From IMG/VR virus record IMGVR_UViG_3300028742_000011: a stretch of 64,000 bases of DNA. The stretch is one strand, 5' to 3'. Below the pieces are notes generated by a model. It had not been told where the DNA came from. It was given only the letters and a program-made list of their open reading frames with translations, and made no database searches. Source of the stretch: a virus. The translations under genes were made by a program, and so were the position numbers. Below are positions 1 through 62,241 of the stretch, one piece after another. Numbering within the stretch: the first letter of the stretch is position 1; the number at the start of each line of letters is the position of its first letter.

Positions 1-366
1 GGCCGCCTGCGGCAAGAGCTGAGAGACTGGAAGCGCCAGAACGTAATCGATACGGCCCGGTTGTGCGAACTACGCACTGAGCTGGAAGACGCACGCAGCA
101 AGGTCATCCCCGGCAATGAGTTCGTACAGAAGCTAGATCGCAAGATTGTGCAAAATCTTTCGAGTGACATCTACAAATACCATCTCCTTCACACCGCTGG
201 GTTCAAGCAGAGGGTCGATGAGCTGTTCCCTAACGAGGAGTACGTTCATCCTTTCGAACCGACTCACCCGGATGTACAAGTGGCCACGTTACTCTTCACA
301 GGACCGGAGAAAGTCGAGTTGGCGATTCAACAGGTACCGGAAGGTATCTTGGAGGCAAAACTGTAA
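1..366 (+). CDS. Hypothetical protein, 5'-truncated at the window edge
   Basis: The frame is open from nt 1 with no upstream stop, so the listed TTG at 61 is probably internal. No recognisable motif. Confidence 0.4.
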   Translation, partial: GRLRQELRDWKRQNVIDTARLCELRTELEDARSKVIPGNEFVQKLDRKIVQNLSSDIYKYHLLHTAGFKQRVDELFPNEEYVHPFEPTHPDVQVATLLFTGPEKVELAIQQVPEGILEAKL

Positions 367-758
367 TGAGACCTTGGATTGGGGTAGACTTGGACGGCAC
401 CTTGGCACGCTATGAGACGTTTGTTAGTCCTACACACATCGGTGAACCTATACCACTGATGGTTGAGCGTGTCAAGTCATGGTTGAGGTTCGGGTTTCAG
501 GTAAAGATCATGACGGCCCGCGTGTACGCTCCCTCTCTCACCGACAACGTGAGCGAGAAAGAGTTCCACAAGCGCAACCTAGACGCCCGCCGCGCACGCA
601 AGGCTATCGAGGAGTGGTGTGCCCTACACATCGGGTACACGCTCGAAGTCACTTGCACGAAAGACTATGGGATGCTTGAGCTGTACGATGACCGTGCTGT
701 GCAGGTCGAGAAGAACACTGGCCGGTTGGTAGGATACACTACACGTGCCACTACCTAG
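366..758 (+). CDS. HAD-superfamily phosphatase (small nucleotidase / polynucleotide 3'-phosphatase-like)
   Basis: N-terminal IGVDLDGTLA is the HAD motif I (DxDGT). KIMTAR fits motif II (S/T). The start overlaps the upstream stop (ATGA). Confidence 0.55.
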   Translation: MRPWIGVDLDGTLARYETFVSPTHIGEPIPLMVERVKSWLRFGFQVKIMTARVYAPSLTDNVSEKEFHKRNLDARRARKAIEEWCALHIGYTLEVTCTKDYGMLELYDDRAVQVEKNTGRLVGYTTRATT

Positions 759-1017
759 ACGCATATCAATAGCTTGCTTTCAAAGAGACGGGTGGAAGTG
801 TCGTCACTGCAATAGCAGAAACGGCCTCCACCCGCATCATTTGATCTACCAGTCCCACGGCGGCCCGGACGATCTATGGAACCTGCTGACGCTCTGTGCG
901 GGCTGCCACCGCGCTCACCATGACGGCTTCCTCGACATCGAGTGGACGATACTTGACGCAGGCCCGAGGCCCGAGGTACAATTCATCAGGCGTAAAGGAT
1001 GGAAACCAACATGGTAG
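745..1017 (+). CDS. HNH endonuclease
   Basis: CRHCNSRNGLHPHHLIYQSHGGPDDLWNLLTLCAGCHRAHH shows the zinc-knuckle Cys pairs plus the HH...N...H HNH core. Confidence 0.7.
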   Translation: MPLPRRISIACFQRDGWKCRHCNSRNGLHPHHLIYQSHGGPDDLWNLLTLCAGCHRAHHDGFLDIEWTILDAGPRPEVQFIRRKGWKPTW

Positions 1018-1027
1018 GTAATGACTA

Positions 1028-1351
1028 ATGAATCGACAGTACTGGGATACAACTCTCCCCGTGGACCGAAGGACAACCGTTCTACTAACCAAGGGAGCAG
1101 TCCCAACTCTGACGCGAGAGAATAACCCGCGCTCCGTGCTCCTGCACACTCTCCTCGACATGGAGAAGCAGAAGGACCGGATAGACCTTGAAGAGAGACA
1201 CTTCATGGTCGTCGCAGCCGGTGCGAAGGAACCCCAAGGCTACACGTACGTGGGTACCGCAGTTCCGAAGAACAGGAACAGCACTGTCTGGCTCGTCTTT
1301 GAGGACGCGAAGAACACCGGAGTAAATGCCGTACCGACCATACCAATCTGA
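1028..1351 (+). CDS. Hypothetical protein
   Basis: ORF in line with the gene array. No motif recognised. Confidence 0.35.
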   Translation: MNRQYWDTTLPVDRRTTVLLTKGAVPTLTRENNPRSVLLHTLLDMEKQKDRIDLEERHFMVVAAGAKEPQGYTYVGTAVPKNRNSTVWLVFEDAKNTGVNAVPTIPI

Positions 1352-2975
1352 GATGCACGAGGCCAGCATCAAGGCTTACGATGCTGGGATTCACTTACAA
1401 CTCATCAGTGCGGCGACCGGGACTGGTAAGACGCAGACCTTCGCTGGCATCCCTGACGTATTTCGTTCGCGTCTCCCCGGCCAGATGCTTGTGCTGGCGC
1501 ACCGCGAAGAGCTGATCGATCAGGGCATCAAGAAGATCAAAGAGGTGAACCCACACCTTACCGTTACGAAAGAGATGGCGGGCGACATAGGCGACGTGAA
1601 TGCTGACGTGATCGTCGGATCGGTCGCTACACTGGGCAACAAGAACTCTGTCCGAGGGGAACGGTTCCCTTGGCACAACATCGACAAGATCATCACGGAC
1701 GAGGCACACCATGCAACATCTGACACTTATCGGACAGTTTATTCTCTTGCTGATGTTCTTCGTCCTGATACACATAAACTCCATCTTGGAGTTACCGCGA
1801 CTCCTCAGAGGGCTGACGGCAAAGCTCTCGCAGAGATTTTCAAGCGAATTATTTACGAGTATTCCCTACGCAGGGCGGTTGAAGAGGGCTATCTCGTCGA
1901 GCCTCATGGCATCCGAATCAAGACGAACACAAGCCTCTCAGAAGCCAAGTCTTCCAATGGCGATTACTCTGCCAGCTCTCTCGCAGCCATCATCAACAAC
2001 CCCGAGCGAAATCAACTCGTCGTCAAGGCATGGCTCGACCACGGTCAAAACCGTAGGACAATTGGTTTCACTGCTGACATCCAGCACGCCTTGGATTTGG
2101 TGGCGATGTTCAAATACTATGGAGTCAAGGCTGAAGCTATCTGGGGGGATGACCCGGAGAGAAAGGCTAAGATCGCTAGGCACCAGAGTGGCGAGACCAC
2201 AATCCTTCTCAACTGTGGCGTGCTCACGGAGGGGTACGACGACCCGGCGATTGGCTGCATTCTACTCGCTCGACCCACAAAATCGGGAGTACTCTACTGT
2301 CAAATGGTCGGTCGAGGGACGAGACTATTTATCGGGAAGACCGATTGCATCGTCATTGACGTGGTTGACTCGACGGCGAAGAACTCGCTTCTCACCCTAC
2401 CGACACTTCTCGGTCTCTCCACCACACTTGACCTAAAGGGCAGAGGTGTGCTATGGGCCGCACGGCAATTGGAAGAGGCGGCGAAGGACTATCCACAGAT
2501 CGACTTCTCGAAGCTCGTAGACATCGACTCCATAACATCTCATATCGAGTCTGTCAACCTGTTTGAAGTGAAGTTCCCTGAGGAGGTGCAGACCAACTCA
2601 GAGCTTACGTGGTACACGTCACCCACAGGTGGGTACATCCTGAAGCTGCCGGGTGAGTACTGGCAGAAAGATAAAGTCACCATCGATCAGAATCTACTTG
2701 ACAAGTGGGAGGTCATCGGTGATATAAAGGGATTGCGTTACCGTGGTGAGCGCGACACAATGGAGGAAGCCTTCCGTGCCGCAGACAAGCTCATTGACGA
2801 TAAGATACCTGAAGCGTTGAATCTCCTGAAGCAAAAGGCCGGGTGGCACGACAGGCCCGCGACCGAGCCTCAGAAGAAAGCCATCAAGCGGTACTACCCC
2901 GGAAGGGCTATACCGCACGACCTAACTAACGGCGCGGCCTCCCGCCTGATTGGACTGGCCAAAGCGAGAAAGTAG
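1326..2975 (+). CDS. Superfamily-2 DEAD/DEAH-box DNA helicase
   Basis: Walker A is AATGTGKT and motif II is DEAHH. The helicase C-domain carries TEGYDDP and QMVGRGTR (motif VI). Confidence 0.8.
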   Translation: MPYRPYQSEMHEASIKAYDAGIHLQLISAATGTGKTQTFAGIPDVFRSRLPGQMLVLAHREELIDQGIKKIKEVNPHLTVTKEMAGDIGDVNADVIVGSVATLGNKNSVRGERFPWHNIDKIITDEAHHATSDTYRTVYSLADVLRPDTHKLHLGVTATPQRADGKALAEIFKRIIYEYSLRRAVEEGYLVEPHGIRIKTNTSLSEAKSSNGDYSASSLAAIINNPERNQLVVKAWLDHGQNRRTIGFTADIQHALDLVAMFKYYGVKAEAIWGDDPERKAKIARHQSGETTILLNCGVLTEGYDDPAIGCILLARPTKSGVLYCQMVGRGTRLFIGKTDCIVIDVVDSTAKNSLLTLPTLLGLSTTLDLKGRGVLWAARQLEEAAKDYPQIDFSKLVDIDSITSHIESVNLFEVKFPEEVQTNSELTWYTSPTGGYILKLPGEYWQKDKVTIDQNLLDKWEVIGDIKGLRYRGERDTMEEAFRAADKLIDDKIPEALNLLKQKAGWHDRPATEPQKKAIKRYYPGRAIPHDLTNGAASRLIGLAKARK

Positions 2976-3292
2976 TGTCAAAGCCCAAGATTTACGAACT
3001 CTCGAAAGAACAGAACGACGCGATGGGCAGTCTTGCTAACGGGAAGAGTCCGATCAAGATTGCCGTCGAGCCTAACCCTGAGGATGACCAAGAGACAAAA
3101 GATCGCTTGACAAAAGTACTCGGACAGTGCGACGATCTAGTCAAGCTTGGATTCATCAAAGACATCACGAACAAGTACGCAGAGGACGTAGCGATATCGA
3201 AGCTCAAGACTGGGCGCGGCATCAAGATGTTCCTCATCACCGATGTGGGCTACGATATGTTTCACGGCCCTAAGAACCCCACGATCCACTAA
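2975..3292 (+). CDS. Hypothetical protein
   Basis: ORF coupled to the helicase stop (ATGA overlap) and acidic. No motif. Confidence 0.4.
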   Translation: MSKPKIYELSKEQNDAMGSLANGKSPIKIAVEPNPEDDQETKDRLTKVLGQCDDLVKLGFIKDITNKYAEDVAISKLKTGRGIKMFLITDVGYDMFHGPKNPTIH

Positions 3293-3303
3293 CCTGCAAA
3301 GGA
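3287..3303 (+). promoter_or_regulatory. Conserved 17-nt motif CACTAACCTGCAAAGGA (RBS-containing) 5 nt upstream of ATG 3309
   Basis: Identical 17-mer with identical spacing recurs at 5090..5106 upstream of ATG 5112. It contains AAAGGA. Confidence 0.5.
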
Positions 3304-3308
3304 CGCCC

Positions 3309-4589
3309 ATGATTACGAACCAGTCTGACCTCGACGCCGTACTTGGAGAAGGTGCATCCAATACCATTCTCGGGTACAACACTATCCTTGACCGCCGCGA
3401 CATCCCCGAGCCGAAGAAGGCCAACCATCAGGCCAAGATCGTGAAGATCGAAGCCCTCCTGCCCCACACCAATGCCGACTCCCTCTCCCTCGTTCAGATC
3501 GATGGCTTCCAAGTCGTCGTGCGTAAGGGTCAGTTCCATCCGGGTGATCTGGGCGTCTACATCCAGCCAGACTCCATCGTGCCCCAAACCGAGGCGTTCA
3601 AGTTCATCTGGGAAGCGTACGTCGGCCTCGACGGTACGGTGCCTGAGAACAGACGGCGTATCACGGTACGCAAGTTCCGCAAGGAGTGGAGCGAAGGTCT
3701 CTTGCTTCCTCTCACTGACTTCACTGAGCTGACGGACGGCGCGACCGGCGCGGTCGATCCTTTCTGGAACGCACCGGGTCTGGACATCTCCGACATCATC
3801 GGTGTGACACACTACGATCCCGATGTCGTCGAGAACACACAGGGAGCCAAGGCGTCGAGTGCCAACTCACCGCGCCGAAAGTTCCGGTACCCACGTACTC
3901 TCCGTGGCTGGTTCCATCTCATCAAGCGTATCATCGCTGGGCGCTCGTTGCGTGAGACGACCAAAGACGTGTCGTTCAGCATCCCCGTCTTCGACGTGGA
4001 GGGCTTCAAGAACTACCCGAACACGTTCGAGGAGAACGAGCAGGTAGTTGTTACTGAGAAGGTCCACGGATCGAATGCGCGGTTCATCGCCATCGATGGT
4101 GAAATCTTCGTGGGTTCCCGTAACCAGTGGAAGGCCGACAACGGTTCGACCGTCTGGCACAAGGTTCTCAAACAGAACGAAGACCTGACGCGCTGGCTGC
4201 TTGAGCACCCCGGCCATGCAATCTACGGAGAGGTGACACCTACCCAGAAGAACTTCCCGTACGGGCCGAAGGACGATGCTGTGGAGGGTGAGGTTCGGTT
4301 CTTTGCCTTCGACATCCTGACCCCGCAACGCGAGTGGATGGACTACGGTTCCTTTAGCTTCTCTCTGCTGTCGTACCCCGGCATCGAGATGGCACCCCTC
4401 CTGTACCTTGGGCCGTACAACAAAGACAAGATCATGACGCTGGTGGATGGACCTTCATGGGTCTACCGTGCTAACCACATCCGCGAGGGTGTCGTCATCA
4501 AGGCCACCAAGGAGCGCACGGTTCGAGGACTGGGCCGAGCGATGCTAAAAATCGTGTCGAACACTTTCTTAGAGGGTGACTCTAAGTAA
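3309..4589 (+). CDS. RNA ligase: Rnl2-like nucleotidyltransferase with an N-terminal tRNA-binding (Myf/EMAP-like OB) domain
   Basis: Nucleotidyltransferase motif I is VTEKVHGSN, matching KxHGxN of T4 Rnl2-type ligases. N-terminal KIVKIEALLPHTNADSLSLVQIDG...GDLGVYIQPDS resembles tRNA_bind OB domains. The start is moved to Met 3309 because of the conserved upstream motif. Confidence 0.6.
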   Translation: MITNQSDLDAVLGEGASNTILGYNTILDRRDIPEPKKANHQAKIVKIEALLPHTNADSLSLVQIDGFQVVVRKGQFHPGDLGVYIQPDSIVPQTEAFKFIWEAYVGLDGTVPENRRRITVRKFRKEWSEGLLLPLTDFTELTDGATGAVDPFWNAPGLDISDIIGVTHYDPDVVENTQGAKASSANSPRRKFRYPRTLRGWFHLIKRIIAGRSLRETTKDVSFSIPVFDVEGFKNYPNTFEENEQVVVTEKVHGSNARFIAIDGEIFVGSRNQWKADNGSTVWHKVLKQNEDLTRWLLEHPGHAIYGEVTPTQKNFPYGPKDDAVEGEVRFFAFDILTPQREWMDYGSFSFSLLSYPGIEMAPLLYLGPYNKDKIMTLVDGPSWVYRANHIREGVVIKATKERTVRGLGRAMLKIVSNTFLEGDSK

Positions 4590-4631
4590 CGAGATCGTCC
4601 TCGGGGTAGCAGTCAATAAGCCTTATACAGA

Positions 4632-5078
4632 ATGGATGAAGACTGCACCCCGCAGGCTCGATGGGCTGATAAGCTAATTGGTAAACTGTCTGCCTCCAAA
4701 GCAGAACTTCTTCGTTCGAGTCGAAGTCGGCCCGCCATTAGAAAGGTTCCTATGAGTAAAGCTGAGAGCATCGCCAATTTCGCGGTAGACACCGATGGCA
4801 AAGAAGTCCCCATCAGGTACAAGGCCGCCGAGCTTGTCAACCATCCTGCACCTACGGGTTACATCTGGCAGCGTCGAAACACTTACGATGAAGGCGCTCA
4901 GGAGTACATCAACAAGATCGAGAATGAGAAGGACTTTGGAGAAGGCTTCAACCCTGAGTCCATCCGCAAGTGGAAGGATCGCATCATTGCCAAACAGAGT
5001 AAGTCCTTAGAGGGTTTGAAGAGAGACGACCCGAACAAATACCACGCCAGTGATTACTACATCGCGGTGACTCACTAA
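4632..5078 (+). CDS. Hypothetical protein
   Basis: ORF only. Confidence 0.35.
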   Translation: MDEDCTPQARWADKLIGKLSASKAELLRSSRSRPAIRKVPMSKAESIANFAVDTDGKEVPIRYKAAELVNHPAPTGYIWQRRNTYDEGAQEYINKIENEKDFGEGFNPESIRKWKDRIIAKQSKSLEGLKRDDPNKYHASDYYIAVTH

Positions 5079-5089
5079 CAACTGTGATA

Positions 5090-5106
5090 CACTAACCTGC
5101 AAAGGA
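5090..5106 (+). promoter_or_regulatory. Second copy of CACTAACCTGCAAAGGA motif upstream of ATG 5112
   Basis: Exact repeat of 3287..3303. Confidence 0.5.
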
Positions 5107-5111
5107 GTCAC

Positions 5112-5306
5112 ATGAACAACGTATCGTGTACGACCGCCCCCGCCGACCGTCAGGCCGGTAGCACCGACTGCCAATACATCGAAGAACTCAAAGAGCTGCT
5201 GGTCGAGCGTGGTAACTGGATTGCCCGCGCCAAGACGATCTTGCAGGCTGCCCGAGACAGCGATCTTGTCTGCGTTCCTCAGGGGTTTATCAATGAGTGT
5301 CAGTAA
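5112..5306 (+). CDS. Hypothetical small protein
   Basis: Preceded by the conserved RBS motif. Confidence 0.4.
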   Translation: MNNVSCTTAPADRQAGSTDCQYIEELKELLVERGNWIARAKTILQAARDSDLVCVPQGFINECQ

Positions 5307-6375
5307 CCCGGCTACGAGCCTCTACGACCTTTGTGAGCACTGCGGGCACCTGTATAAGGTCCACTTCGACTCCAAGTGCGGACACCTTCACCATGACGCC
5401 GATGAAAACCTGCCCCTCGGCCAGTGTTCTTGCCCCGGCTTCTCCAAGAAGCAGGAGCTAATGCTGAACCCCTGCGCCGAGATTGACTTGGGTACTGGCT
5501 TACCGGTTGAGATAGATGTACCTGAGATGCCGTTTCCTGAGGCTCCAGAGGGGGTACAAGGCGTCGTTGACCCTGAGACGGGGGTTACCACTATCCCTTT
5601 CCCCACAGACGCTTCTATGACCTTTGAGCCTAAGGCCCTGTCTTGGGAGCAAGACCTTGCCCGGATGTGTATCTGCGGCCACACTAAGGGCAGGCACACT
5701 CAGATTTTGACCCACGAAGATGGAAAGGTGACCGGGGGCATCTGTTGTGCCACAGCGTCCACTAAGGATTATTCTTACTGCCCGTCCAAGTGCCAGAAAT
5801 TCACCGAAGTGGTCACGCTGGTTATCGAGACGGACCCTAATGGGGCTGCGAAGATGGCGGCACTGAAAGACAACGCTCCCATCGTGCTGATGAATCAAGG
5901 ACCGAATGCAGGCAAGTACAAGCATCTCATCATGGACGACGTGGTGGGGTTCGGGAAGACGACCTCAGGGAAGCCACCGCTGACAAAGGACATACACAAG
6001 TCCGTGATGTTCGGTCTGGGCTATGGTAAGTCCTTGACAATGAGCGACCTAGATTACGGTATGTTTCACGACGAGATGTACCTCTACAACAAGAAGCCGA
6101 AGATATTAGAGCACTCCGAAGGACAGTTGGAGGGCGTGGCCAACTGGCTCTGGAAGGCCGGGGGTATCAAGAAGACTTTTATCCAAGGTCACGACCTACG
6201 GGATATATGTATCGCGTACGCTGCTGAGGCGATGCGGGAGATGACCGAGAACTTCGACTCCAACGTGGAGAAGGCCGTGCAGAAGCGGATGGCCTTCGAG
6301 AAGAAACAACACAAAGACAAGTGCATCCCGTCGTACAAGAAGAATGGCCGTAAGTTCCGCGATGACAACGGTTGA
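5293..6375 (+). CDS. Hypothetical Cys/His-rich (zinc-finger-like) protein
   Basis: Start is placed at the internal Met after a GGGG RBS. CEHCGH...CGHLHH...CSCPGF cluster. No catalytic motif recognised. Confidence 0.45.
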   Translation: MSVSNPATSLYDLCEHCGHLYKVHFDSKCGHLHHDADENLPLGQCSCPGFSKKQELMLNPCAEIDLGTGLPVEIDVPEMPFPEAPEGVQGVVDPETGVTTIPFPTDASMTFEPKALSWEQDLARMCICGHTKGRHTQILTHEDGKVTGGICCATASTKDYSYCPSKCQKFTEVVTLVIETDPNGAAKMAALKDNAPIVLMNQGPNAGKYKHLIMDDVVGFGKTTSGKPPLTKDIHKSVMFGLGYGKSLTMSDLDYGMFHDEMYLYNKKPKILEHSEGQLEGVANWLWKAGGIKKTFIQGHDLRDICIAYAAEAMREMTENFDSNVEKAVQKRMAFEKKQHKDKCIPSYKKNGRKFRDDNG

Positions 6376-6400
6376 CAACCTAAAGCTTTAGTGTTACACT
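6372..6400 (+). promoter_or_regulatory. Promoter TTGACA-N17-TACACT
   Basis: Exact -35 TTGACA (6372-6377), a 17-nt spacer and -10 TACACT (6395-6400), upstream of the primase-helicase. Confidence 0.55.
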
Positions 6401-6462
6401 AGGTTCATAAGTCATTGGAAGTAAACACCCGTAAGGCGTGGGTGAATATATACAGGAGTTGA

Positions 6463-8487
6463 GTGAAGATACCGGAAGCGTTCACTGGCTCACAGGCGAT
6501 GCAGCTTGTGGTCAGTCAGGGTTGGAAGTACAGAGAAGTATCTAGTCCCAAGATCGAAATCGAGAGATGCCCGTATTGCAAGAAGGACGGGTTCCATTTA
6601 GGCATGGAGATTCATGGGGCCGGGAGTGGGCAGACAAACAGGGACGGTCTGCATGGGTGCGTACACTGTGGCAAGGGTGGTAACCTTTACACACTGAAGC
6701 AGCATTTAGGAATCGTACAGGCGAACATCGAGAGCCGCAGGGACTCGGGTAGTTCTGGGGAGAATAAGAAGCAAGAGGAGCTGCCGGATACGGAAGCGTG
6801 CCACGAAGCACTGCTGGCCGACGAAGCTGCTCTGGACTATCTGGTCAACGGTCGTGGCTTCTCGATGGACGTTATCGGGAAGATGAAGCTGGGCCTTGTG
6901 GAGAAGAGGTTCTTCCGAGGTGTAGGTGAAGTGCGGGCGCTCGTGTACCCGTACATGGTCAACGGCAACACAGTGTTCTGCCACTATCGAACGCTGCCGA
7001 CGATGCCACTGTCTGAGAACTTGGTACCCAAGGCGTTCAGTTCGCCAACAGGATGGCCGGTTCCGTTGTACAATGGTGAAATCCTCAACGATCAGAATCT
7101 CACTGAGGCGACGTTCGTAGAGGGTGAGCCGGACGTAATCTGCGCGATTGACCACGGCGTAAAGAACATCTGCGGCGTGCCGGGTGCAAACTTCAAGAAG
7201 GCCGAGTGGATCGATTCCCTCGACAGACTGGACAAGGTTTATGTCTGCTACGACAAAGATGCGGTGGGCCAGAAGGCTGCGCAGGAACTCGCTAATCGCA
7301 TTGGAATCGAGAAGTGCTGGAAGATTATTCTGCCGGACTTTCAGGTTACGACCGAAAAGGGTGAGCAGCGAAATGGCAAAGACCTGAACGAGTGGTTCAC
7401 ACAAGGCGGAGGAACGCCTGAGGCATTCGAGAAGCTGAAGGAAGAAGCTCAGCTCTTCGACGTGGCCGGTGTAGCGTCCTCTAAAGACTCCATGCAGGAG
7501 TTCTACGACGAACTTGAGGGGAAGACAACATTAGAGCCAAAGTACAAGACGCAATGGCCATCGCTGAACAAGCTGGTAGGGTTCGAAGATGGGGACGTGA
7601 TCGATATCCTAGCACCGGAGAAGATCGGAAAGACTACGTTCGCCTTGAATCTGATGGACCACATGGTTTCAGCATACGGCGAGGACGGGGTTTTTATCTG
7701 CTTGGAGATGACTCGCGCTCGTATGGCACGCAAGTGGGTCTCTTATCTTGGGCAGGTAGCTGACAACATTCCGAAGTCGGTGGAAGAGGGTGAAGCTCTC
7801 AAGGCCGCCTTCATGGAAGCGAGGTCAACTGTACAGGCTATCACAGCAGCACGTGAGGGTGATCTGTACTTCTGCTATCCCAAGTACAAGTCGGTCGAGG
7901 ACATCTATGGTCTGATCCGTGACGTGATCCGCCGCTATGGTGCGAAGTGGATTTGTATCGACAACATTCATCGTCTGGCAGACTCAACACCCTACGACAA
8001 CAGAACGCAGCACCTCTCACAGATATCGAAGATCACGAGTCAGATCGCCAAGGACTACGGTGTGAAGCTGGTACGCATTCTCCAGCCGAACCGTATCAAG
8101 GCCGGGGCAATCGTCTCATCGGATAACACGGATGGTTCGTCTCAGATCGCAAAGGACTGCGACTGCACGATCACCCTTCACCGTACGAAGCTGGGAGAGC
8201 TTAGTGCAGACGACTTCGAGAAGATCGGATATGTGGAACAGGAAGCTGCCTTCGGTGAGGATGTTCTTACTGGCGTGCCTCTATCACGCTATTCGAGTGG
8301 CGGCTACTGTACGCTTCACGTCAACGGGGAGACCAGTACGTTCATGGAGAAGAACGAAGGCCAGATCGCAAAGATGAAGGCTGACTCCAACAAGAACGTG
8401 GGTCACGAAAACCAGTTGGCTAATCTGGGCGTCGTCCTCAAGAAGGACTACACTGGCGAAGTTCCGATGGGAGATGTGGTCTTCTAA
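6463..8487 (+). CDS. Bifunctional DNA primase/helicase (T7 gp4-like)
   Basis: N-terminal zinc-binding CPYC...HGCVHCG. TOPRIM-like EGEPDV...CYDKD. DnaB-family C-terminal domain with Walker A APEKIGKTT. Confidence 0.85.
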   Translation: MKIPEAFTGSQAMQLVVSQGWKYREVSSPKIEIERCPYCKKDGFHLGMEIHGAGSGQTNRDGLHGCVHCGKGGNLYTLKQHLGIVQANIESRRDSGSSGENKKQEELPDTEACHEALLADEAALDYLVNGRGFSMDVIGKMKLGLVEKRFFRGVGEVRALVYPYMVNGNTVFCHYRTLPTMPLSENLVPKAFSSPTGWPVPLYNGEILNDQNLTEATFVEGEPDVICAIDHGVKNICGVPGANFKKAEWIDSLDRLDKVYVCYDKDAVGQKAAQELANRIGIEKCWKIILPDFQVTTEKGEQRNGKDLNEWFTQGGGTPEAFEKLKEEAQLFDVAGVASSKDSMQEFYDELEGKTTLEPKYKTQWPSLNKLVGFEDGDVIDILAPEKIGKTTFALNLMDHMVSAYGEDGVFICLEMTRARMARKWVSYLGQVADNIPKSVEEGEALKAAFMEARSTVQAITAAREGDLYFCYPKYKSVEDIYGLIRDVIRRYGAKWICIDNIHRLADSTPYDNRTQHLSQISKITSQIAKDYGVKLVRILQPNRIKAGAIVSSDNTDGSSQIAKDCDCTITLHRTKLGELSADDFEKIGYVEQEAAFGEDVLTGVPLSRYSSGGYCTLHVNGETSTFMEKNEGQIAKMKADSNKNVGHENQLANLGVVLKKDYTGEVPMGDVVF

Positions 8488-53368: not shown

Positions 53369-53869
53369 TTATGCCTTTCGTAATTTCTCAGCGAAGTAGT
53401 CCCAATGGGTCTTCGCAAACTGCCGTACTCCGATGCCGGGGTCGTACTTGGCGTACAGTGTACGGTAAATTTTCTCGGAGTGAATGAAATTACCTGCTAG
53501 TTCACCTATTGCTCGTAGGTAGAGCATTGCCGTTGTTGGGCCACGGGAGTGACCCGCGTTACACGCGACCAGAACTTTGTCGCCTGCCGCCAATCGTTTA
53601 TCGATGAACTCAAGACCGCGCTCCACCATTTCTTTGGGAATGAAGTGGGGGTCTTGGGGGTCAATGAAGTTCAGTGCCCGTCTGCCGGGTTGATCCACTG
53701 ACAGGTAATGCGCCCCTTTGGGTGCTCCGAGAGATTCATAGCCAAGCGTGTCTCTATGACCGCCCGGACCTTCCTTGCAGCAACGAAGGACAGACCAGCC
53801 GTCCTTGCCTTTGATCTTGAGGTAGTCGGAATCGTCACCGACGTACAAGCTGCCGATGACGTTTTCCAT
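53369..53869 (-). CDS. Dual-specificity / tyrosine protein phosphatase
   Basis: VLVACNAGHSRGPT is the CX5R catalytic loop. The domain starts IGSLYVGDD. The listed ORF runs to 54175 across tRNA-Pro, so the start is taken as Met 53869 (Met 54004 is an alternative). Confidence 0.65.
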   Translation of the reverse strand: MENVIGSLYVGDDSDYLKIKGKDGWSVLRCCKEGPGGHRDTLGYESLGAPKGAHYLSVDQPGRRALNFIDPQDPHFIPKEMVERGLEFIDKRLAAGDKVLVACNAGHSRGPTTAMLYLRAIGELAGNFIHSEKIYRTLYAKYDPGIGVRQFAKTHWDYFAEKLRKA

Positions 53870-54131
53870 GCAGCCTCCGAATGGGGTGTACGGTGGAAGT
53901 CGAATCCACCAGAAGACAGCTTCACAGGCTGCTGCTACGGTTCCCAGAGTAGCCACGTACACAGTGTTGCGCCGGAAGTATTCACGGCTGATATGGTGCT
54001 CCATGAGGGCGTCGAACCCACACGCCCGAAGGCACCGGTTTCTTAGACCGGCGCGTCTGCCAATTCCGCCAACAGAGCACTTGAATCTAATGTGTGCCGA
54101 GATTATAAGGCTCTCGGCTGGCCTATCAGTA

Positions 54132-54208
54132 TGGTCTGGGTGAGAGGATTTGAACCTCTGACAACTCGCTTCCAAAGCGAGGACTCTACCAGACTGAGCT
54201 ACACCCAG
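54132..54208 (-). tRNA. tRNA-Pro (anticodon TGG)
   Basis: Folded by hand into a canonical cloverleaf: acceptor CTGGGTG/CACCCAG, anticodon loop TTTGGAA, T-loop TTCAAAT, encoded CCA. Confidence 0.8.
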
Positions 54209-56429: not shown

Positions 56430-56553
56430 TGGCTCACGGGGCTGGGATCGAACCAGCGACCGTTCGGTTACTTTTCGAGATTCCAGAGTTGCACTGGAGC
56501 GTGGCGTTCCACATCTCGCACAGCCGAATGCTCTACCGCTGAGCTACCCGCAA
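56430..56553 (-). tRNA. tRNA-like gene interrupted by a 56-nt insertion (including a 41-nt structured core) in the anticodon loop (GTG/His-like anticodon context)
   Basis: Canonical acceptor (TTGCGGG/CCCGTGA), D-arm (GCTC-AGCGGTA-GAGC), T-arm (GCTGG-TTCGATC-CCAGC) and CCA. The anticodon stem TTCGG/CCGAA encloses 56 nt (loop 5 + 41-nt core + 10) containing a 6-bp helix CGAGAT/ATCTCG and two hairpins. Confidence 0.5.
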
Positions 56554-61225: not shown

Positions 61226-61537
61226 ATGGACAGTCTATGGGAGCGCGGCGAATATCTCCTGTTCAAGGATGTGGGGAAGGCCCGTAAAGGCGGCACTACC
61301 CACGTCTTTGACGTGATGTCTAAGACCGGCGCTGCACTGGGAATCATCAAGTGGTTCCCACACTGGCGGAAGTACACGTTCCACCCCGGACCCGAAACAG
61401 TTTTCGATCCAAAGTGCTTGACAGAACTATCCGAGTACTGTACACTGAAAACAGTCGAACACAACGCAGGTAAGGGATACCCCAGAGACTATAGAGGTTT
61501 CTGCAAACCGAAGGTTGACAATCCCGATCAAGTTTGA
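61226..61537 (+). CDS. Hypothetical protein
   Basis: Start chosen at Met 61226. The listed ORF starts at 61184. Confidence 0.35.
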   Translation: MDSLWERGEYLLFKDVGKARKGGTTHVFDVMSKTGAALGIIKWFPHWRKYTFHPGPETVFDPKCLTELSEYCTLKTVEHNAGKGYPRDYRGFCKPKVDNPDQV

Positions 61538-61544
61538 TACAATT

Positions 61545-61945
61545 CAAAAAGTTACGCATGGTATGAAGCTCCAAAGTCGGTAGACGGACGTGGGTTCGAA
61601 TCCCACCATCTCCACCAAAACAACTCGTAAGCGTACTGCATACGGGGATGTCAAGGTTTCGACGGATACAGATAGAAGAGTGGACTGTGCAGGTGCCTAG
61701 CGACCTTGACTGCTGGAAAAAAAGAACTGTCACCGAAAGTGTCAGCCACAGCCGTGTCCGTTTCAGCGTTCGCAAGAGCGTTGTTGCAGCACAGCTACTT
61801 GCGGCCTAATAACCGCTGGGGCCTCTTGACGGGCCTAGCAACAGAAGGGGGAGCGATCCCCCAGTCTAAACATTTACGTGGGAAGGCTGACGAATGGATT
61901 TTCATGGGGTCGGTCGGCGGGTGATTGGGGTTGTCACTGGCGAGG
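61545..61945 (+). ncRNA. ssrA: Circularly permuted (two-piece) tmRNA (ssrA) candidate
   Basis: The upstream acceptor piece ends ...GACGGACGTGGGTTCGAATCCCACCATCTCCACCA (T-arm, 3' acceptor strand, CCA), very like the E. coli tmRNA 3' end. The coding piece starts 26 nt downstream with GGGGATGTCAAGGTTTCGACGG (cf. GGGGCUGAUUCUGGAUUCGACGGG). GGGGATG pairs with CATCTCC including a G3:U70 wobble. The in-frame tag ends ...AAQLLAA-TAA-TAA at 61786..61812, followed by CCGCTGGGGCC (cf. E. coli UAAUAACCUGCUUAGAGCC). The ends are approximate. Confidence 0.55.
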
Positions 61946-61962
61946 GTTTATAAAGGAGATGT

Positions 61963-62241
61963 ATGTCTGGACAAGAGCAGTTGGTAAAAGGCGGCAAGAG
62001 TTCGTTTCCGTTCTTCTCTATTTTGACCTTGATTTTTGTCGTCGCTAAACTTGCTGGGTTCTTCCCGCATTCATGGTGGATTGTGTTCATACCCCTGTGG
62101 GGACCGATATCGGTACTGGTGGCACTGTCGTTGCTGTTTATTCTGGCAGCGTTGATCTTCGCAATAGTGGGTTCCGTTATCGACGAGATCGATAAGGTAC
62201 GCAGCAAGAAAAAGAAAGACGACGGTAAATGGCTCTCCTGA
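61963..62241 (+). CDS. Membrane protein (2-3 TM helices)
   Basis: AAGGAG RBS. Hydrophobic FFSILTLIFVVAKLAGFF and VLVALSLLFILAALIFAIV. Confidence 0.45.
   Translation: MSGQEQLVKGGKSSFPFFSILTLIFVVAKLAGFFPHSWWIVFIPLWGPISVLVALSLLFILAALIFAIVGSVIDEIDKVRSKKKKDDGKWLS

Follow-up and report, generated by a model that had tools for sequence, protein, structure and literature searches.

The 64,000-nt viral DNA analyzed here (IMG/VR record IMGVR_UViG_3300028742_000011; hereafter the window) is part of a soil phage genome of ~97 kb and opens in the middle of an early/replication gene array. We consider it possible, with a rough probability of 0.45, that this array encodes a toolkit for the repair of RNA breaks, comprising an Rnl1-type RNA ligase, an Rnl5-family RNA ligase and two cap-less phosphatases of the HAD superfamily. 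The preliminary description of this DNA, made from the sequence alone, had proposed a two-gene RNA-repair module consisting of a small HAD phosphatase (HAD130; 366..758, + strand) and an RNA ligase (3309..4589, + strand). Both genes exist and are intact at these coordinates, as judged from start signals, the N-termini of homologues and public gene calls. An RNA-repair reading is reasonable for the wider array, whereas the pairing of these two genes is weak. Overall, RNA repair is plausible here but unproven; it would be a variant of a counter-defence already known from phages, possibly a kinase-less form of the T4 Rnl1/Pnkp arrangement.

Sequence comparison solidly places the ligase in the Rnl5 family of ATP-dependent RNA ligases (DraRnl/NgrRnl type), in a divergent and phage-rich subfamily. 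The frame is open from position 3243, and four points back the start at 3309: an AAGGA lies 8 nt before it, the gene in front ends at 3292, the N-termini of 55 homologues agree, and an identical 426-aa product is called on public contigs (P0121, L007). Pfam models cover an OB domain at aa 42–135 (nt 3432..3713, + strand; PF21189, PHA02142 OB-fold, E 1.2e-16) and a nucleotidyltransferase domain at aa 244–416 (nt 4038..4556, + strand; PF09414, RNA_ligase, E 7.2e-22), and the full length matches phrog_968, "RNA ligase" (E 7e-45). The sole solved relatives found by sequence search are the RNA ligase entries of Naegleria gruberi. A profile of 56 ligase sequences matched NgrRnl (PDB 5cot) over both domains (E 1.9e-24), and next T4 Rnl2 (2hvq, E 2.7e-4) in the nucleotidyltransferase domain only. 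The top NCBIfam model is TIGR02306 (RNA_lig_DRB0094, the DraRnl family) with 129.9 bits; the score falls under the equivalog cut-off of 151.15, and the phage ligase represents a divergent subfamily (phrog_968). The Rnl2 model TIGR02307 gave 19.2 bits versus a cut-off of 197.

The catalytic residues of the ligase are complete. Motif I (E-K-x-H-G-x-N) reads EKVHGSN and contains K251 (codon at nt 4059–4061), H253, G254 and N256, all invariant in the 56 homologues, as are E308 in motif III, E393-G394 in motif IV and K414 in motif V. K251, E308, E393 and K414 align with K170, E227, E312 and K326 of NgrRnl, which are catalytic-motif residues (PMC7261155), and motif I of DraRnl is likewise KxHG (K165/H167/G168; PMC1807946). 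The OB domain is N-terminal, the nucleotidyltransferase domain is C-terminal, and no domain lies beyond motif V. The protein stops 12 residues past this motif and so lacks the C-domain of the Rnl2 type, which makes it a member of the Rnl5 family. The complete catalytic residues and the Rnl5 architecture together lead us to expect self-adenylylation on K251 and sealing of 3'-OH/5'-PO4 ends. The preliminary description had called the enzyme Rnl2-type from its KxHGxN motif; the motif is present, but the family was wrong, being ruled out by the TIGR02307 score, by the PDB profile matches with NgrRnl in first place and by the absent C-terminal helical domain. Its naming as an RNA ligase was correct, and searches of Pfam, PDB sequences and PDB profiles returned no match to a DNA ligase or a capping enzyme. 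Rnl5 ligases have already been reported from phages (PMC1807946, PMC7261155).

Compared with its characterized relatives, the phage ligase retains the core of the family and differs at its edges. It shares with DraRnl and NgrRnl the OB and nucleotidyltransferase domains, both of which align to NgrRnl, the end soon after motif V, the KxHG form of motif I seen in DraRnl, and motifs III, IV and V; the equivalent of Asp53 in the OB domain of NgrRnl is conserved as D88. In contrast, the phage protein is longer (426 aa versus 339–342 aa) and carries an N-terminal extension of ~35 aa and a conserved basic linker of ~40 aa between the domains (P-R-T-L-R-G-W), both of which are traits of the subfamily. 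Lys121 of NgrRnl is replaced by an invariant His168, and Arg149 by a non-conserved Gly/Ala. T4 Rnl2, the second-best solved relative, has a related nucleotidyltransferase domain with the EKxHGxN motif I, and both are nick-sealing kinds of ligase; unlike T4 Rnl2, the phage ligase has an N-terminal OB domain and no C-terminal helical domain.

The OB domain of the ligase does resemble tRNA-binding domains, as first proposed, but the resemblance is one of structure. Outside the Rnl5 family, the closest domains by structural comparison are the tRNA-binding EMAP/Myf/PheRS-B2 domains (comparators Trbp111, CsaA, PheRS beta B2, the MetRS C-terminal domain and EMAP II), so that the OB fold is of the same subtype as tRNA_bind. 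The JGI COG-based names of some ligase homologues read "tRNA-binding EMAP/Myf-like", and the N-module of DraRnl has been likened to PheRS B2 (PMC1807946). At the level of profiles, the OB domain had no Pfam match to PF01588 (tRNA_bind) at E ≤ 0.1, and the PDB-sequence profile search with the ligase returned no tRNA-binding protein at E ≤ 10. Unlike the EMAP/Myf domains, the Rnl5 OB domain promotes adenylylation (PMC7261155): in NgrRnl and DraRnl it touches the gamma-phosphate of ATP and is required for lysine adenylylation, and it is dispensable for the sealing of a pre-adenylylated nick (PMC4408790, PMC7261155). The characterized Rnl5 enzymes seal nicks in duplexes, need a strand with an RNA 3'-OH and are feeble on single-stranded RNA, and breaks in tRNA loops are the domain of Rnl1 and Rnl4 (PMC4408790, PMC7261155). 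The suggestion that the OB architecture suits this ligase to sealing broken tRNAs therefore does not follow from the resemblance and is a weak argument for such a role.

HAD130 is established, from sequence motifs and a predicted structure, as a stand-alone cap-less HAD phosphatase of 130 aa with a complete Asp-nucleophile site on a minimal Rossmannoid fold. Its start codon shares bases with the stop codon of p212, the gene before it, in the sequence TAATG; a GGAGG lies 11 nt ahead of the ATG, and the two genes are translationally coupled. HAD motifs I–IV lie on the Rossmannoid fold, and the residues D8-x-D10-G-T12, T50-A-R52, K99-D100 and D108-D109-R110 show little or no variation among 65 homologues; the predicted local distance difference test score of the model is 95.4. 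Cap-less HAD enzymes favor macromolecular substrates or cap their active sites by oligomerization. Our best reading is that HAD130 is closest to the phosphatase domains of Pnkp, by a small margin over sugar and acid phosphatases, which makes it a candidate polynucleotide 3'-phosphatase. Thus, the earlier idea of a Pnkp-like 3'-end healer stands as far as the nearest relatives are concerned, and is weakened by the narrowness of the margin.

Several searches contribute to this placement of HAD130. Among PHROGs it matches phrog_415, "polynucleotide kinase" (E 1.6e-7), and alignment by hhalign to residues 162–248 of T4 PseT gave a probability of 48%. PF25109 (HAD_PNKP) is the only HAD family recurring among the homologues (9 of 65, all sub-threshold, best E 0.0018); HAD130 itself does not match it, nor any other Pfam model at E 0.1, and the "Swiss-army-knife" HAD family, checked via Pfam alone, gave no match. 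In structural comparison the Pnkp phosphatase domains come out only marginally ahead of other characterized enzymes, with values of 8.9 for a class C acid phosphatase, 7.8 for GmhB and 7.4–7.6 for deoxyribonucleotidases. A search of predicted viral structures returned mixed names (polynucleotide kinase, nucleotidase, capsule phosphatase), and the domain fusions of HAD130 homologues are merely uninformative tails. The minimal HAD proteins BT_0820 (PDB 2obb) and VC0232 (PDB 1xpj) come from structural genomics and have no known substrate, so they provide no functional information. HAD130 shares with T4 Pnkp (PseT), marginally its best structural match among characterized enzymes, the DxDGT, (S/T)-x-R and DD-R motifs of a HAD phosphatase; it differs in having no kinase domain, fused or separate, and its identity to T4 Pnkp is ~21–24%.

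A second RNA ligase and a second HAD protein lie immediately outside the window. Base 1 of the window corresponds to base 9636 of L007 (99.98% identity), and the segment 6232–10001 of L007, just upstream of and running into the window, encodes a GNAT acetyltransferase, an Rnl1-type ligase, a 175-aa HAD protein, p95, p255 and p212. The Rnl1-type ligase (L007 6663–7844, 393 aa) matches PF09511 (1e-19), phrog_562 over its full length (1e-54) and T4 Rnl1 (2c5u, 7e-11). The last 8 nt of the Rnl1 gene are shared with the 175-aa HAD gene, the product of which has a DFDGT motif and is homologous to 2obb (2e-9); this product matches phrog_1238, and the label "phosphoheptose isomerase" attached to that PHROG misnames it. 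An Rnl1-type ligase is therefore found near a putative end-healing enzyme in this phage, in an arrangement that is conserved. The slot directly after Rnl1 is occupied by a HAD of the 175-aa type in nine distinct relatives and by one of the HAD130 type in four others. Two HAD types swapping at one slot implies selection for a phosphatase beside Rnl1. This swap is the best genomic evidence for a phosphatase working with a ligase, and it indicates Rnl1 rather than Rnl5 as the partner. Pairing of the HAD proteins with Rnl1 is thus better supported than that of HAD130 with Rnl5, and Rnl1 with the HAD gene right behind it is the better candidate pair for tRNA repair; the pairing of HAD130 with Rnl5, put forward in the preliminary description, is weakened by the survey of HAD130 neighborhoods given below.

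The array is syntenic across a clade of related phages. It runs in the order GNAT, Rnl1-type ligase, second HAD, p95, p255, p212, HAD130, HNH, DUF7352, helicase, p105, Rnl5 and tRNA-Trp, with the HAD130 and Rnl5 genes 2.5 kb apart and four genes between them. The order common to the clade is Rnl1, HAD, p255, (HAD130), helicase, p105, Rnl5, primase-helicase, endonuclease VII and RecA, and it is kept in relatives at 40–60% protein identity. These include the closest cultured relative, the Tunturiibacter (Acidobacteriota) phage Tunturi_3 (complete genome 97.6 kb, ~48% protein identity), where the counterparts are gp74 (Rnl1), gp72 (HAD), gp68 (helicase) and gp64 (Rnl5). Two more distant relatives, L117 and L118 (IMG/VR 3300020579_000008 and 3300050821_006485), have the Rnl1 gene directly upstream of the Rnl5 gene. 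Comparative work on RNA repair in phages has noted HAD phosphatases that stand alone and occur together with RNA ligases (PMC7824862). As in the rnlA-alc-pseT cluster of T4, the ligase and phosphatase genes share a strand and are separated by a small number of genes, and the nearest Rnl1 homologues outside the clade, in Streptomyces phages, adjoin a full-length Pnkp among tRNA genes. Unlike the T4 Pnkp and Rnl1 pair, the array combines two different ligases with two different HAD proteins, which are stand-alone phosphatases of 130 and 175 aa.

In an RNA-repair toolkit of this composition, the HAD proteins would strip 3'-terminal phosphates off broken RNA, in the manner of the T4 Pnkp phosphatase domain. 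Rnl5, self-adenylylated on K251 with the help of its OB domain, would seal 3'-OH/5'-PO4 ends and may close nicks in base-paired RNA or RNA:DNA, while Rnl1 may close breaks in tRNA loops. Ligases and phosphatases, along with the tRNAs and transfer-messenger RNA (tmRNA) of the phage, would shield translation from host RNases. The count of at least five tRNA-type genes and a tmRNA given previously was confirmed and extended: the window holds seven tRNAs, six found by ARAGORN and the seventh by Rfam, and a permuted two-piece tmRNA at 61522..62015 (+ strand; Rfam core 61555..61809; tag peptide GKADEWIFMGSVGG), with a homologous permuted tmRNA in Tunturi_3 (L161 24173–24397). One of the tRNAs, tRNA-Trp(CCA) (4663..4737, + strand; ARAGORN, Rfam 52 bits), lies 74 nt downstream of the ligase, and it directly follows Rnl5 in this phage and four relatives (L005, L001, L003, L021) but not in nine others examined.

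Several observations weigh against the repair toolkit, foremost the kinase. T4-style healing of breaks with 2',3'-cyclic-phosphate and 5'-OH ends needs a 5' kinase, so a lone phosphatase cannot complete it, and a Walker-A scan found no P-loop polynucleotide kinase in ~84 of the ~97 kb of the phage, i.e., the window and its flanks. Within the window the Walker-A open reading frames (ORFs) are only a helicase, a primase-helicase and RecA, in agreement with the preliminary description, which had recognized no kinase; the 10 kb upstream (L007) and the 10 kb downstream (L012) added an AAA ATPase and no kinase. The same scan of the relatives' arrays and of the complete Tunturi_3 genome gave no polynucleotide kinase, and the region of a relative that corresponds to most of the remaining 13.6 kb contained no kinase candidate. 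The missing kinase leaves three possibilities: the substrates carry 5'-phosphate ends, a host or unrecognized kinase takes part, or the HAD proteins have another role. Under the first two, the system may act on ends that already bear a 5' phosphate, as expected from metal-dependent nucleases, or may rely on such a kinase. Furthermore, the linkage of Rnl1 and HAD is known from one syntenic phage lineage and therefore represents few independent events. The structural likeness of HAD130 to Pnkp barely exceeds that to sugar and acid phosphatases, and the characterized Rnl5 enzymes, the physiological role of which is uncharted, act poorly on single-stranded RNA (PMC4408790, PMC5397189). The neighborhoods of HAD130 relatives and the position of the Rnl5 gene, described below, also count against the toolkit.

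Three proteins considered in the search for end-healing enzymes were rejected. p255, the steadiest neighbor of Rnl1 and looked at as a possible kinase, shows no catalytic-looking conservation and no family match. Tunturi_3 gp59, annotated as a "kinase", is a small protein-kinase-like protein; tblastn and hidden Markov model searches of this phage turned up no homologue of it. The gp59 family (L156 16535–17113 and about 30 related loci) consists of proteins of 165–190 aa without a Pfam match, with the motifs G-x-F-R-x-V-Y...V-V-K-V-P, D-N-x-G and L-K-I-I-D-L-G; its gene directly follows the primase-helicase gene in most relatives, a position filled by endonuclease VII in this phage. Tunturi_3 gp90 (L161 651–1208), annotated as an "RNA 2'-phosphotransferase", begins with the LYHGT motif, so that the N-terminal half of Tpt1/KptA is missing, and no homologue of it turned up in those parts of this phage that were covered.

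It is possible, if less than probable, that HAD130 and Rnl5 are unrelated neighbors sharing an early gene block, with HAD130 acting in DNA metabolism or on the nucleotide pool as a nucleotide or sugar-phosphate phosphatase, e.g., a 5'(3')-(deoxy)nucleotidase. Relatives of HAD130 occur in more than 500 viral contigs, and the best 80 viral loci were surveyed for homologues of Rnl1 or Rnl5 at distances of up to 10 kb. Such a homologue was absent from 73 of the 80 and present in seven, all from the syntenic clade of this phage, and outside this clade the 80 loci showed no other conserved neighbor. A HAD130 relative abuts DNA polymerase I in phiRSL1, another lies between thyX and exonuclease/polymerase genes in Vibrio phage PVA7, and those of Rhizobium phages are found among ParB-like and ATPase genes. 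The failure to find a kinase partner also fits unrelated neighbors. Three points speak against this explanation: Pnkp phosphatase domains are the top characterized relatives of HAD130 by three methods, a HAD130-type gene directly follows Rnl1 in four relatives, in the slot of the other HAD type, and the protein lacks a cap domain, which favors macromolecular substrates or oligomeric capping.

Somewhat unlikely is a function of Rnl5 in phage DNA replication, recombination or repair instead of tRNA repair, where it would seal nicks with an RNA 3'-OH in RNA:DNA hybrids, e.g., from primed synthesis or break repair, comparable to the radiation protection by DraRnl. The Rnl5 gene lies between those of an SF2 helicase and a primase-helicase, followed by endonuclease VII and RecA/UvsX throughout the clade, a position equally apt for DNA replication or repair. 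Characterized Rnl5 enzymes are template-directed, need a strand with a ribonucleotide 3'-OH and accept a DNA 5'-PO4 strand, and loss of DraRnl sensitizes D. radiodurans to ionizing radiation (PMC1807946, PMC4408790, PMC5397189). This function is at odds with the presence of an Rnl1-type ligase and of phosphatases typical of RNA repair in the same array, with the tRNA-Trp after the ligase in several relatives, and with the adjacency of Rnl1 and Rnl5 in L117 and L118. In addition, the polarity of Okazaki nicks (DNA 3'-OH, RNA 5' end) would mismatch the substrate preference of Rnl5. Among 62 viral loci surveyed around Rnl5, Rnl1 was found in 27, p255 in 36, HAD130 in 13 and a 175-aa-type HAD in 11. 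Both this explanation and that of an unrelated HAD130 are compatible with parts of the repair toolkit.

A more specific form of the repair toolkit seems quite improbable: the clade of Acidobacteria phages would have a kinase-independent system for RNA repair or processing, built from Rnl1, Rnl5 and one or two stand-alone Pnkp-like HAD proteins. Such a system would either reseal RNAs with 5'-phosphate breaks, as made by metal-dependent defence nucleases of the PIN or Toprim type, or splice a tRNA of the phage itself whose anticodon loop is interrupted by a 49-nt insertion. If true, either form would represent a kind of RNA repair or splicing in phages without an experimental description so far.

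The insertion-bearing tRNA gene (56433..56553, − strand, 121 nt) matches the entire Rfam tRNA model with 47 bits, interrupted by ~49 nt in the anticodon loop, and ARAGORN in its intron mode calls a tRNA-Asn(GUU), placing a 49-nt intron behind position 35. It is very improbable that RNA of the phage itself, and not damage inflicted by the host, is what the ligases and phosphatases act on, e.g., by joining the halves of this tRNA after excision of the insert in protein-dependent splicing. In favor, the gene is kept in the sister strain L012, and the insert folds as a helix with two hairpins and gave no Rfam match to a ribozyme or a group I intron at E ≤ 0.01. On the other side, the fold energy does not beat that of shuffled sequences (z = −0.69), the tRNA was not found in Tunturi_3 despite the same ligase/HAD array, nor in IMG/VR by pattern search, a splicing endonuclease and a kinase were not identified, and the gene may be just disrupted or decaying.

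If the inference of a repair toolkit is correct, phages of soil Acidobacteria, a poorly studied group, would hold a T4-like answer to RNA-cleaving defences that is made of different parts (Rnl5, stand-alone HAD proteins and no kinase). It would add to the kinds of RNA-repair toolkit known from phages and offer a testable setting for the Rnl5 family. Both proteins belong to families already known from phages, and the combination of two ligases with two HAD proteins, possibly lacking a kinase, is a modest variant. The practical value is limited because the families are known and the pairing of HAD130 with Rnl5 is not specifically supported; it consists of a corrected annotation (Rnl5 instead of Rnl2, and the misnomer of the second HAD) and a pointer to the larger array outside the window.

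The genes adjoining HAD130 and Rnl5 are as follows. The window begins inside p212, the 3' part of which occupies 1..366 (+ strand; frame 1 open from base 1). The entire gene (L007 9363–10001) encodes a predicted membrane protein of 212 aa with a hydrophobic N-terminal half and no match in the family searches. An HNH endonuclease gene (745..1017, + strand, 90 aa; PF01844 1.6e-8 and many HNH PHROGs) is wedged between the HAD130 gene, which it overlaps by 13 nt, and the DUF7352 gene. It is called in L007 and uncalled in the near-identical L008–L010, although the DNA is there, and it is an intervening gene outside the repair function. Two further intervening genes encode a DUF7352 protein (1028..1351, + strand, 107 aa; PF24043 2.1e-8) and an SF2 (ResIII/DEAD-type) helicase (1326..2975, + strand, 549 aa; PF04851 3.3e-23, phrog_16 1e-78), the latter syntenic across the clade and present in 37 of the 62 Rnl5 loci. 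p105 (2975..3292, + strand) is a conserved small protein encoded immediately 5' of the ligase gene; a homologue precedes the ligase in 19 of the 62 loci, and no family match was obtained in Pfam, PHROGs or NCBIfam. Promoter and terminator sites in positions 1..6500 were no more frequent than expected by chance.

On a larger scale, the window has plus-strand replication genes at either end and a long minus-strand block of large ORFs between them. Megablast found no near-identical cultured phage, and the exact HAD130 protein is present on many metagenome contigs of 35–97 kb. Two other genes may encode enzymes that modify RNA ends. One, at 53372..53869 (− strand), encodes a 166-aa dual-specificity (DSPc) cysteine phosphatase with the motif C-N-A-G-H-S-R, 76% identical to Tunturi_3 gp146, and adjoins the tRNA-Leu and tRNA-Pro genes; it is a candidate end-modifying enzyme. 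The 268-aa ORF at 53369..54175, which overlaps tRNAs, is probably over-extended. The other, about 415 nt past the end of the window (L012 11308–11901), encodes a calcineurin-like metallophosphoesterase of 197 aa that is 47% identical to Tunturi_3 gp132, "phosphoesterase". The calcineurin-like fold heals 2',3'-cyclic phosphate ends in bacterial Pnkp, and this metallophosphoesterase may be part of the same toolkit.

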